Sequence record: MT129654.1
DNA: 64,000 nt
Strand: one strand, 5' to 3'
From: Escherichia phage MN04
Within the stretch, counting starts at the first letter, position 1, and every line of letters starts with the position of its first letter. The notes beneath the pieces were generated by a model, which ran no database searches, was not told where the DNA came from, and saw only the letters and a list, made by a program, of their open reading frames with translations. Made by a program: the position numbers and the translations under genes. Positions 36,229 through 37,502 of the stretch are shown piece after piece.

Positions 36229-36466
36229 ACAAACCGTTGAACAGAAACTGCAGTCTGAAATCGTTATCCTGAAATCTCGTATCCTTGATACTCAGGACCA
36301 TGCACAGCGTGTTAAAGCTGATTGTGACCTTCTTACCAAAGTACTTGGTGAGATTGCTGCAGTAGTTGGCGTTACCGGTGATTCTGTTAAAATCGAAGAC
36401 CTGGTTGAAGCTGTTAAAGCCCTGGTTCCAGAAGCTTCTGATGAAGAATATTCTGACGAAGAATAA
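36221..36466 (+). CDS. 57A: Tail fiber assembly chaperone gp57A
   Basis: 81 aa '[26 protein letters not shown]'; size and position as T4 57A. Confidence 0.6.
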
Positions 36467-36921
36467 TGAAAACCGAAGATTTTGCTCAAGGTCTATACGT
36501 TGCTGCAAAATTCTCTGAATTGACTTTAGATGCGCTGGAAAATCTTCAGCGCACTTTAAAGGTTCCTAATCCAGTTCCTCGTGAAAAATTCCATTCTACA
36601 ATCTGCTATTCAAGAGTCAACGTTCCATACACCGTTGCATCCGGAAGTTTTGAAGTTGCTTCGTCAGGACATCTTGAAGTGTGGAAACATGGTGATTCTC
36701 CAGTCTTGGTCTTGGTTCTCAATTCAGAGTATCTTAAATGCCGCCATCAGTATGCTCGTACCTTAGGTGCTACGCACGATTTTGATGATTACACCCCTCA
36801 TATCACATTGTCTTATAATGTAGGACCTCTTACCTTTAGTGGAGATGTCCATATTCCTGTCGTTTTAGATAGAGAATATAAAGAACCCTTGAAGCTCGAC
36901 TGGGCCGAGGATTTAAAGTGA
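36466..36921 (+). CDS. 57B: 2H-phosphoesterase 57B (Acb1-like anti-CBASS nuclease)
   Basis: 151 aa; two H-x-T motifs ('FHSTICY','PHITLSY'); position between 57A and ipI locus. Confidence 0.7.
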
Positions 36922-37127
36922 AATCATACAAAGAATTTTTAACAGAAGCAATGGAACCCGCCTCTTCGGTGGCAATAGAGGTTTCTTGTACTCCTGAAGA
37001 ATTTAAAGAAAGCCTGAAAGGTATAAATTGGCTTTCGGGAGAGTTATCTAATGGGGTTGCCTACTTCTTCGGCCCTCAATCAGATATAGATAGCTGGGTC
37101 TCTGAAAATTCTTCATGGCTAAAATAA
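36918..37127 (+). CDS. Internal-protein-like protein with capsid targeting sequence
   Basis: N-terminus [11 protein letters not shown] (T4 IP targeting-sequence consensus MKTYQEFIAEA, L/I-x-E cleavage site); GTG start overlapping 57B stop. Confidence 0.55.
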
Positions 37128-37139
37128 TTTAAAAAAGAT

Positions 37140-37185
37140 GTTTACAAGGTCTATAGACATGATACTATAGACCTATCAAAACAAA
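37140..37185 (+). promoter_or_regulatory. Early promoter module
   Basis: GTTTACA, 17-bp spacer, TACTAT, conserved AGACCTATCAAAACA. Confidence 0.6.
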
Positions 37186-37208
37186 CCCAACCTAACGGAA
37201 ACAAAAAA

Positions 37209-37502
37209 ATGAAAACTTATCAAGAATTTATCAAAGAATCGACAGATTTGTATTCCATTAACAAAGCGGCTATGGCCGATATTAGTAGCGATATTAAAAG
37301 AGCCTTTGGCTCAGGTGATGTTGATAAGGCTCAGCAAATTACTATTACAGTAAATGGTAAACCTGTTAGTATAGCATTCAATACGGTTAAAAAGAAATAT
37401 TATATTAATCTTGGTGATGATATCCACTTTACAAAATATAAGACTTTTTCCGGTCTTACCAAAGATAAAGTAGTTTCTAAAATCAAAGAAATTACAAAAT
37501 AA
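37209..37502 (+). CDS. Internal-protein-like protein (ipI-locus) with capsid targeting sequence
   Basis: N-terminus MKTYQEFIKES; 97 aa; early promoter upstream. Confidence 0.65.
   Translation: MKTYQEFIKESTDLYSINKAAMADISSDIKRAFGSGDVDKAQQITITVNGKPVSIAFNTVKKKYYINLGDDIHFTKYKTFSGLTKDKVVSKIKEITK

Follow-up and report, generated by a model that had tools for sequence, protein, structure and literature searches.

Genes and features of the 57B-trna.4 locus

The stretch analysed here, 64,000 nucleotides of Escherichia phage MN04 (record MT129654.1; hereafter the window), carries between gene 57B and trna.4 two small open reading frames (ORFs) whose products of 69 and 97 amino acids begin with the capsid targeting sequence (CTS) of the T4 internal proteins (IPs). 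These ORFs are referred to as IP-A and IP-B, names coined in this analysis, and IP-A overlaps the end of 57B, a gene of the Acb1 family of phosphoesterases (acb1). Together they constitute the classical hypervariable 57B-ipI-trna.4 locus, an arrangement already well described in T4 relatives.

Sequence comparisons identify the stretch as part of a T4-like coliphage, a JS98-like Dhakavirus (Tevenvirinae). Over 1.6 kb around the locus, nucleotide identity reaches 98.4% with Escherichia phage JS98 and 97.8% with JS10. The order on the + strand is gene 2, gene 3, gene 1, 57A, 57B, IP-A, IP-B, trna.4, trna.3 and trna.2 (Table 1).

Table 1. Positions in the window of the genes and sequence elements discussed in the text
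Feature	Position	Strand	Evidence and details
acb1 (gene 57B), 2H phosphoesterase, 151 aa	36466..36921	+	Pfam, PDB, alignment with T4
Coupling junction acb1/IP-A	36907..36921	+	GAGGA Shine-Dalgarno 36907-36911; GTG 36918-36920; TGA 36919-36921
IP-A, predicted 69-aa internal-protein precursor	36918..37127	+	phrog_23867, family conservation
PeSL-type cassette 1	37121..37184	+	AT-rich stop region, promoter boxes, stem, conserved TATCAAAACAA tail
IP-B, predicted 97-aa internal-protein precursor	37209..37502	+	CTS at start; present in JS98 and JS10
PeSL-type cassette 2, upstream of trna.4	37488..37551	+	-35 box 37506-11, -10 box 37530-35, stem-loop; fold z=-3.2
trna.4, small membrane protein	37572..37757	+	phrog_1692 E=1.2e-33; annotated trna.4 in JS98 and T4
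Gene 57A, tail-fibre chaperone	36221..36466	+	Pfam GP57 E=1.7e-28; position as in JS98 and T4
Gene 1 (deoxynucleoside monophosphate kinase)	35467-36228	+	
Third CTS gene, 205 aa	40560..41177	+	starts MKTYNEFLNES; phrog_2280; late promoter TATAAATA at 40524; cassette 3 follows
PeSL-type cassette 3, after the 205-aa CTS gene	41218-41281		stem lost (z=-0.67)
Second IP locus	49749..50705	+	IPIII orthologue 49749-50345 (86% to T4 IPIII); Ip7-like gene 50406-50705
gp21 prohead serine protease, predicted to cleave the CTS behind Glu10	7051..7686	-	Pfam Peptidase_S77 E=1.1e-103
gp22 scaffold	6205-7020	-	T4_CASP E=2e-90; next to gp21
gp23	4624-6183		neighbour of gp21/gp22

Gene 57B encodes a member of the Acb1 family

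The sequence of the 57B product makes it a member of the Acb1 family, the 2H phosphoesterases directed against CBASS, the antiphage signalling system that relies on cyclic oligonucleotides. The protein matches the Pfam Acb1 profile PF23474 over positions 1-144 of 144 (E=1.3e-58; score 197.2 bits, threshold 27) and the Acb1 of PDB entry 7T26 in a phmmer search (E=2.8e-58), and it is 84% identical to T4 Acb1 over the full length. Two H-x-T motifs had been noticed in a preliminary description of the locus made from the nucleotide sequence. They were located at H43-S-T45 (nt 36592-36600, + strand; T4 H44/T46) and H112-I-T114 (nt 36799-36807, + strand; T4 H113/T115) and are invariant relative to T4, JS98 and IME08, so that both catalytic histidines (H43 and H112) are kept in the alignment with the characterised enzyme. 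The nucleobase-stacking aromatic residues are conserved as well, Y11, W73 and F106 being aligned with the identical T4 residues Y12, W74 and F107. The same description named T4 57B as the Acb1 nuclease, in agreement with the work that defined its catalytic tetrad (H44, T46, H113 and T115) and its substrates (Hobbs et al. 2022, PMC9117128); structures 7T26 and 7T27 are those of the Acb1 orthologue of phage FBB1 (PMC9117128). The matches to PF23474 and 7T26, together with the intact tetrad and aromatic residues, thus establish family membership, and enzymatic activity is to be expected from the 84% identity with the assayed T4 enzyme. The RefSeq label for 57B is the legacy name "RNA ligase" instead of Acb1.

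Two predicted internal proteins with capsid targeting sequences

The residues of the T4 CTS that matter have been mapped: positions 4 and 7 are needed for targeting and positions 8 and 10 for processing, during which the protease gp21 cuts after the Glu of an L/I-x-E site (PMC9026906). The preliminary description had assigned both small ORFs to this signal and its gp21 site, and the assignment is borne out at all mapped positions, IP-A and IP-B both keeping Y4, F7, L/I8 and E10. The predicted sites (a slash marks the cut) are L8-T9-E10/A in IP-A and I8-K9-E10/S in IP-B, and E10 is invariant in both families. The CTS is encoded by nt 36918-36947 in IP-A and by nt 37209-37238 in IP-B (MKTYQEFIKE/S), whose verified ORF begins MKTYQEFIKES, as first reported. 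The T4 sequence quoted at that time, MKTYQEFIAEA, does open IPII and IPIII but not IPI, which begins MKTFKEFTSTTTPVSTITEA.

A regular expression for the CTS matched five times in the window, every time at an ORF start codon, and not once in 200 shuffled windows. The three matches other than IP-A and IP-B correspond to a 205-aa protein (40560), an orthologue of IPIII (49749) and an Ip7-like protein (50406). The machinery that would receive and trim the CTS is also present, since gp21, gp22 and gp23 are encoded in the window. From the motif and this context, and by analogy with the T4 IPs, we infer that IP-A and IP-B are CTS internal-protein genes whose products are packaged.

IP-A matches phrog_23867 (E=2.6e-42). 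Homologues of the same length were found in 29 phage records, from Dhakavirus, Kagamiyamavirus (EcS1), Winklervirus (Gravdalen) and Moonvirus (Merlin and CF1), and a more distant form is present in Karamvirus CkP1. The ratio of nonsynonymous to synonymous substitution rates (dN/dS) is 0.04-0.15 in comparisons with JS98, IME08, EcS1 and Gravdalen, and an AlphaFold2 model has a beta-alpha-beta-beta-alpha fold (predicted local distance difference test, pLDDT, of 79). The occurrence in 29 records of at least four genera, the low dN/dS and the small confident fold argue that IP-A is a real gene, which strong purifying selection has maintained across four genera or more. Family members share 30-55% identity overall, with F7 and E10 invariant, residue 4 aromatic and residue 8 aliphatic (L/I/V/M); the maintenance of the CTS positions among such divergent members shows that the propeptide itself is under selection. 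The family comprises only 12 clusters in 5.8 billion proteins, none of which carries a name, and its predicted mature form in the window has 59 residues and an isoelectric point (pI) of 4.1.

IP-B has a much narrower distribution. It is nucleotide-identical in JS98 and protein-identical in JS98 and JS10, and it is absent from every other Dhakavirus examined, where Ip8-like, Ip9 and/or Ip7 genes are found instead. Edwardsiella phage PEi20 and Enterobacter phage CC31 have relatives with 33-44% identity and an intact CTS, situated at the e-denV IP locus. A HMMER scan of 1.8 billion representatives retrieved the cluster of IP-B itself and a relative in Yersinia phage MHG19, and nothing else credible; two repeat proteins (Ig/PKD and NHL/beta-propeller) were rejected as homologues, their many weak beta-strand matches being compositional. 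The predicted mature IP-B is a lysine-rich protein of 87 residues (pI 9.6) whose size and charge are close to those of IPI* and IPII. A Pfam search gave no match for either IP-A or IP-B, and the structure models of the two proteins are uninformative.

Several further observations concern these genes. In JS98, the ~650 bp between 57B and trna.4 hold no annotated coding sequence in GenBank or RefSeq, despite two well-supported CTS genes; the IP-A ORF is unannotated in both JS98 and JS10, and IP-B is unannotated in the JS10 matches as well. The MHG19 relative of IP-B (locus L013, 2453-2752; 31-33% identity) starts MKQQQQIKILEN and lacks the CTS; it adjoins motA, outside both IP loci, and may represent an IP turned into a non-packaged protein, or the reverse. 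Finally, the I-K-E motif recurs in IP-B at E94, three residues before its C-terminus (nt 37485-37502). C-terminal trimming by gp21 has been reported for T4 Alt, and gp21 might similarly trim the C-terminus of IP-B.

Variability of the slot between 57B and trna.4

Two polymorphic IP loci are concerned by these families, the 57B-trna.4 slot, which holds IP-A and IP-B in the window, and the e-denV slot, which holds the relatives of IP-B. The hypervariability of IP loci, invoked in the preliminary description, is documented in the literature (Silas et al. 2025, PMC12373910), and the work of Repoila et al. (1994), as cited in PMC3012670, presents the ipI locus as polymorphic among T-even phages. 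It was also apparent in our survey of 23 T4-type loci retrieved through 57B, taken together with annotated phage records, in which the number of CTS genes separating 57B from trna.4 varies from zero to five. Stripped of the CTS, the 56 distinct CTS proteins collected sort into 18 families. On the right-hand side the variable slot has trna.4 as its conserved edge. On the left, 57A lies upstream of 57B in the same transcription unit, and its end overlaps the start of 57B.

Start/stop coupling and promoter/stem-loop cassettes

The overlap between the 57B stop and the GTG of the 69-aa ORF was correctly described at the outset. The TGA stop of acb1 and the GTG start of IP-A share four nucleotides (GTGA) in differing frames, and a GAGGA motif is located 6 nt 5' of the GTG. 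The start codon is also GTG in JS98 and UP19 and is ATG in the other loci of the family; an (A/G)TGA overlap occurs likewise in Dhakavirus, Moonvirus, Kagamiyamavirus, Winklervirus and Karamvirus loci. Considering all IP genes, about 10 of the 23 loci have an (A/G)TGA junction 3' of 57B, and the IP families joined in this way include at least five that are unrelated. Consecutive IP genes are moreover joined head to tail through 4-nt ATGA overlaps in CF1 (three in succession; locus L030, 3453-4284) and in Merlin (locus L007, 1495-1916). The same junction thus occurs in unrelated IP families and between IP genes, which makes it a feature of cassette joining rather than a special tie between Acb1 and IP-A. 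Judged from its sequence, the acb1/IP-A arrangement is ordinary start/stop translational coupling and not a fusion, the two genes lying in separate reading frames. The earlier wording, according to which the phosphoesterase gene was translationally fused to the IP genes, therefore stands as regards the stop/start overlap with IP-A but neither as regards a fusion nor as regards IP-B, which starts 81 nt after the end of IP-A behind an early-promoter/stem-loop cassette of its own.

This cassette belongs to a 64-nt repeat (repeat family D1) present in three copies that are 63-84% identical and follow IP-A, IP-B and the 205-aa CTS gene. In the first copy, a -35 box TTTACA (37141-46) precedes a 10-bp stem (37147-56/37165-74) that overlaps the -10 box TACTAT (37163-68) and whose fold is well below the shuffled expectation (z=-5.1). 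A promoter scan recovered the TTTACA and TACTAT boxes in all three copies, and the stem-loop overlaps the -10 box in two of them. The early-promoter/stem-loop (PeSL) elements of T4 and PST have the consensus TTTACW-N17-TAYWAT and have been proposed as drivers of modular accessory-gene shuffling (Arbiol et al. 2010, PMC2839356; Comeau et al. 2014, PMC4122927). The copies of the window likewise lie behind a stop codon and ahead of the Shine-Dalgarno sequence and start codon that come next, contain an early promoter of the sigma70 type and flank variable ORFs, with spacers of 16 and 18 nt against N17 in the consensus. By sequence and position the three repeats are PeSL-type cassettes, with a predicted role as promoter and terminator. 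PeSL elements were not found between the chained IP genes of CF1 and Merlin, suggesting that IP cassettes can be joined in two different ways.

Gene 1 of T4 holds a perfect TATAAATA late promoter upstream of 57A, 57B and ipI, at a place where the window reads AATAAATA (35859-35866); late transcription reading through to acb1 and the IP genes may therefore not be as in T4.

Other features downstream of the locus

Beyond trna.2, two further ORFs are followed by genes for tRNA-Met, tRNA-Asn and tRNA-Arg, and an Rfam scan of the 35-42 kb interval returned nothing besides these three tRNAs. At 39800-39829, about 250 nt past tRNA-Arg, lies a sequence resembling a tRNA T-arm (GGTTCGAATCC...), for which neither ARAGORN nor Rfam gave a call. 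The T4 stable RNAs rnaC and rnaD occupy the equivalent position, and the sequence could be a decayed tRNA or the counterpart of rnaC/rnaD.

A 32-nt GC-rich hairpin followed by a T-run, terminator-like, is present in two copies of 94% identity (39868-39909 and 40491-40531), each with a perfect TATAAATA late promoter 2-3 nt later. The copies flank an ORF at 39936-40490 (phrog_2143), and the second precedes the 205-aa CTS gene; from its sequence, the unit looks like a late-gene counterpart of PeSL. The central part of the 205-aa CTS protein is of low complexity and rich in Pro, Ala and Lys. At the position of its gene, the related loci L015 and L016 carry different CTS proteins of 140-157 aa.

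Proposed functioning of the locus and alternative explanations

These data very probably describe a classical accessory IP locus, in which Acb1 is accompanied by two packaged and injected IPs, probably nuclease blockers, exchanged at cassette junctions. By close orthology, the acb1 product would be a cytoplasmic, metal-independent 2H phosphoesterase that destroys CBASS cyclic-oligonucleotide signals. IP-A would be translated from the GTG overlapping the acb1 stop, with the GAGGA 6 nt upstream, and IP-B would be expressed from its own early-promoter/stem-loop cassette. The motif and context suggest that both precursors would bind, through their 10-residue CTS, to the prohead's scaffolding core of gp22 and would be cut by gp21 after Glu10 (L-T-E/A in IP-A and I-K-E/S in IP-B), the mature 59-aa acidic IP-A and 87-aa basic IP-B being presumably retained in the head and entering the next host with the DNA. 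By analogy, each would then most probably block one particular nuclease of the host's first response: in T4, Ip1, Ip2 and Ip3 have separate GmrSD type IV enzymes that they inhibit, and they do not cross-protect (PMC12373910; PMC9391042, a preprint). Arabinosylated 5-hydroxycytosine, rather than glucosyl-hydroxymethylcytosine, has been proposed for Dhakaviruses (PMC13326640), and the targets may accordingly be enzymes recognising this hypermodification, in which case the relevant nucleases may differ from those met by T4. The promoter/stem-loop cassettes, the conserved 30 nt encoding the CTS and the AAATGAAA stop/start junction would provide the recombination points at which IP genes are swapped, and such swapping would explain why IP-B is nearly unique to JS98 and JS10 and IP-A is widespread.

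Several points weigh against this interpretation. Past the first 11-13 residues, T4 IPI, IPII and IPIII show no match to IP-A or IP-B, consistent with the absence of likeness to IPI beyond the CTS stated in the preliminary description, and the mature proteins resemble IPI* neither in sequence nor in fold. The acidity of mature IP-A is unlike the basic character of the T4 IPs (pI 9.0 for IPI* and 9.6 for IPII), and the structure model of IP-B is weak (pLDDT 60). Directly upstream of IP-A or IP-B there is no canonical late promoter (TATAAATA), the nearest on the + strand being at 33484; a search for a dedicated late promoter of either gene gave only variants with one mismatch, such as TATAAATT at 37022. 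T4 ipI equally has no late promoter directly upstream. Neither virion proteomics nor expression data for members of the IP-A and IP-B families were found in the literature, and the publications on JS98 and other Dhakaviruses yielded no virion proteomics. The target class proposed for IP-A and IP-B comes from the analogy with T4 Ip1-3 and is not a result.

It is also conceivable, although unlikely, that packaging and processing of IP-A and IP-B do take place but that the two proteins, instead of inhibiting host defences, fill the head, associate with the DNA (charge, ejection) or act otherwise on host physiology. Most T-even IPs are without established function (Silas et al. 2025, PMC12373910; PMC9026906), the lysine-rich, basic IP-B (pI 9.6) recalls the DNA-embedded IPs of T4 (PMC3012670), and a structural search returned no match to any known inhibitor. 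Yet the three T4 IPs assayed were all specific inhibitors of GmrSD enzymes (PMC12373910), a housekeeping role leaves the turnover of zero to five genes per locus unexplained, and IP-A, with a pI of 4.1, cannot neutralise the charge of DNA.

Other explanations attach more meaning to the contact between IP-A and acb1, which are directly coupled in most loci seen. IP-A might be injected to inhibit a defence class different from GmrSD, as a ready-made partner of Acb1 in the first minute, ahead of all phage gene expression, that acts on CBASS or on some other system of nucleotide signalling or nucleases; we regard this as quite improbable, and if it were true the recurrent coupling would reflect function and not the mechanics of cassette junctions. 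There is still less reason to believe that IP-A is a cytoplasmic partner kept in fixed proportion to Acb1 by coupling, with a CTS-like N-terminus that is a relic of the cassette. The conservation of the 4-nt overlap with acb1 in at least four genera, the lack of a late promoter belonging to IP-A and an acidity atypical among IPs would fit such a role, but the CTS positions are constrained (F7 and E10 invariant, residue 4 aromatic and residue 8 aliphatic), the same junction serves at least five unrelated IP families as well as the IP-IP pairs of Merlin and CF1, and in CF1 IP-A comes second in the chain without touching acb1. Scarcely any credence can be given to an Acb1-IP-A fusion made by -1 slippage on T_TTA_AAG at the acb1 end, which would load some Acb1 into the capsid. 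The last codons of acb1, GAT TTA AAG TGA (36912-36921), do form an X_XXY_YYZ heptamer abutting the stop, with IP-A in the -1 frame. This heptamer is nevertheless missing at the junctions of EcS1, Gravdalen, Merlin and the loci L020 and L028, it is found in T4 where no overlapping gene comes next, the fold downstream is no stabler than shuffled sequence (z=+0.68), the Shine-Dalgarno sequence abuts the heptamer instead of lying the expected ~10 nt upstream, and CTS function has been demonstrated at the N-terminus only (PMC9026906). A programmed frameshift was consequently rejected, and the heptamer, neither conserved at homologous junctions nor followed by a structure, is probably a coincidence.

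With the locus taken as a classical accessory IP locus, its significance is small, Acb1 being a plain orthologue of a characterised enzyme and the IP slot an instance of textbook accessory-gene turnover. The novelty, small too, lies in two unannotated genes of JS98-type records and in the unnamed, acidic, multi-genus family of IP-A. The analysis allows the missing IP genes of the JS98 and JS10 records and the "RNA ligase" label of 57B to be corrected. Fairly widespread and unusually acidic, the IP-A family is a candidate for screens of injected anti-defence proteins, a sensible choice given that each of the three T4 IPs assayed to date turned out to be a specific inhibitor of restriction.

Comparison with T4 and related internal proteins

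T4 presents the same order, 1 - 57A - 57B - ipI - trna.4 - trna.3 - trna.2 - tRNAs. Its Acb1 shares with the window protein its length, its position after 57A, the HxT/HxT tetrad and the aromatic residues in contact with the ligand, and by sequence there is no difference of substance between the two enzymes. The genes differ in how they end: T4 57B stops with TAA and a PeSL element comes directly after, whereas acb1 of the window ends in a TGA that the start of the first IP gene overlaps. T4 ipI occupies the same slot between 57B and trna.4 as IP-A and IP-B, bracketed by homologous early-promoter/stem-loop cassettes, one after T4 57B and one after ipI itself, and the slot contains one IP gene in T4 against two in the window. 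The T4 IPs (Mullaney & Black 1996; Silas et al. 2025, PMC12373910) have in common with IP-A and IP-B the 10-residue CTS and the L/I-x-E site of gp21, with predicted mature lengths of 59 and 87 aa compared to 76 aa for IPI*; the mature sequences of IPI, IPII and IPIII are unrelated to them. Gene replacement between related phages, known for the T-even ipI locus, is equally seen among the relatives of the window.

A closer counterpart of IP-A may be Ip6 (ipVI), a CTS protein of the same locus in Tequatrovirus that is annotated in Yersinia phage PST, vB_EcoM_VR7 and fFiEco06. The C-terminal helix motif GP-x-x-(D/V)-I-(D/E)-x-W is common to Ip6 and IP-A, and their secondary-structure elements follow one another in the same order. 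The two proteins are joined by the intermediate sequences CkP1_0157 and KMB19, with BLAST E-values, from a small database, of roughly 1e-5 to 1e-7 for the steps through CkP1_0157. Direct profile-profile comparison with hhalign gives weak support (48% probability, E=1.8e-4, 40 columns), and Ip6, with 77 aa, has a longer N-terminal half. Altogether, these sequence similarities indicate that IP-A is probably a distant relative of Ip6.

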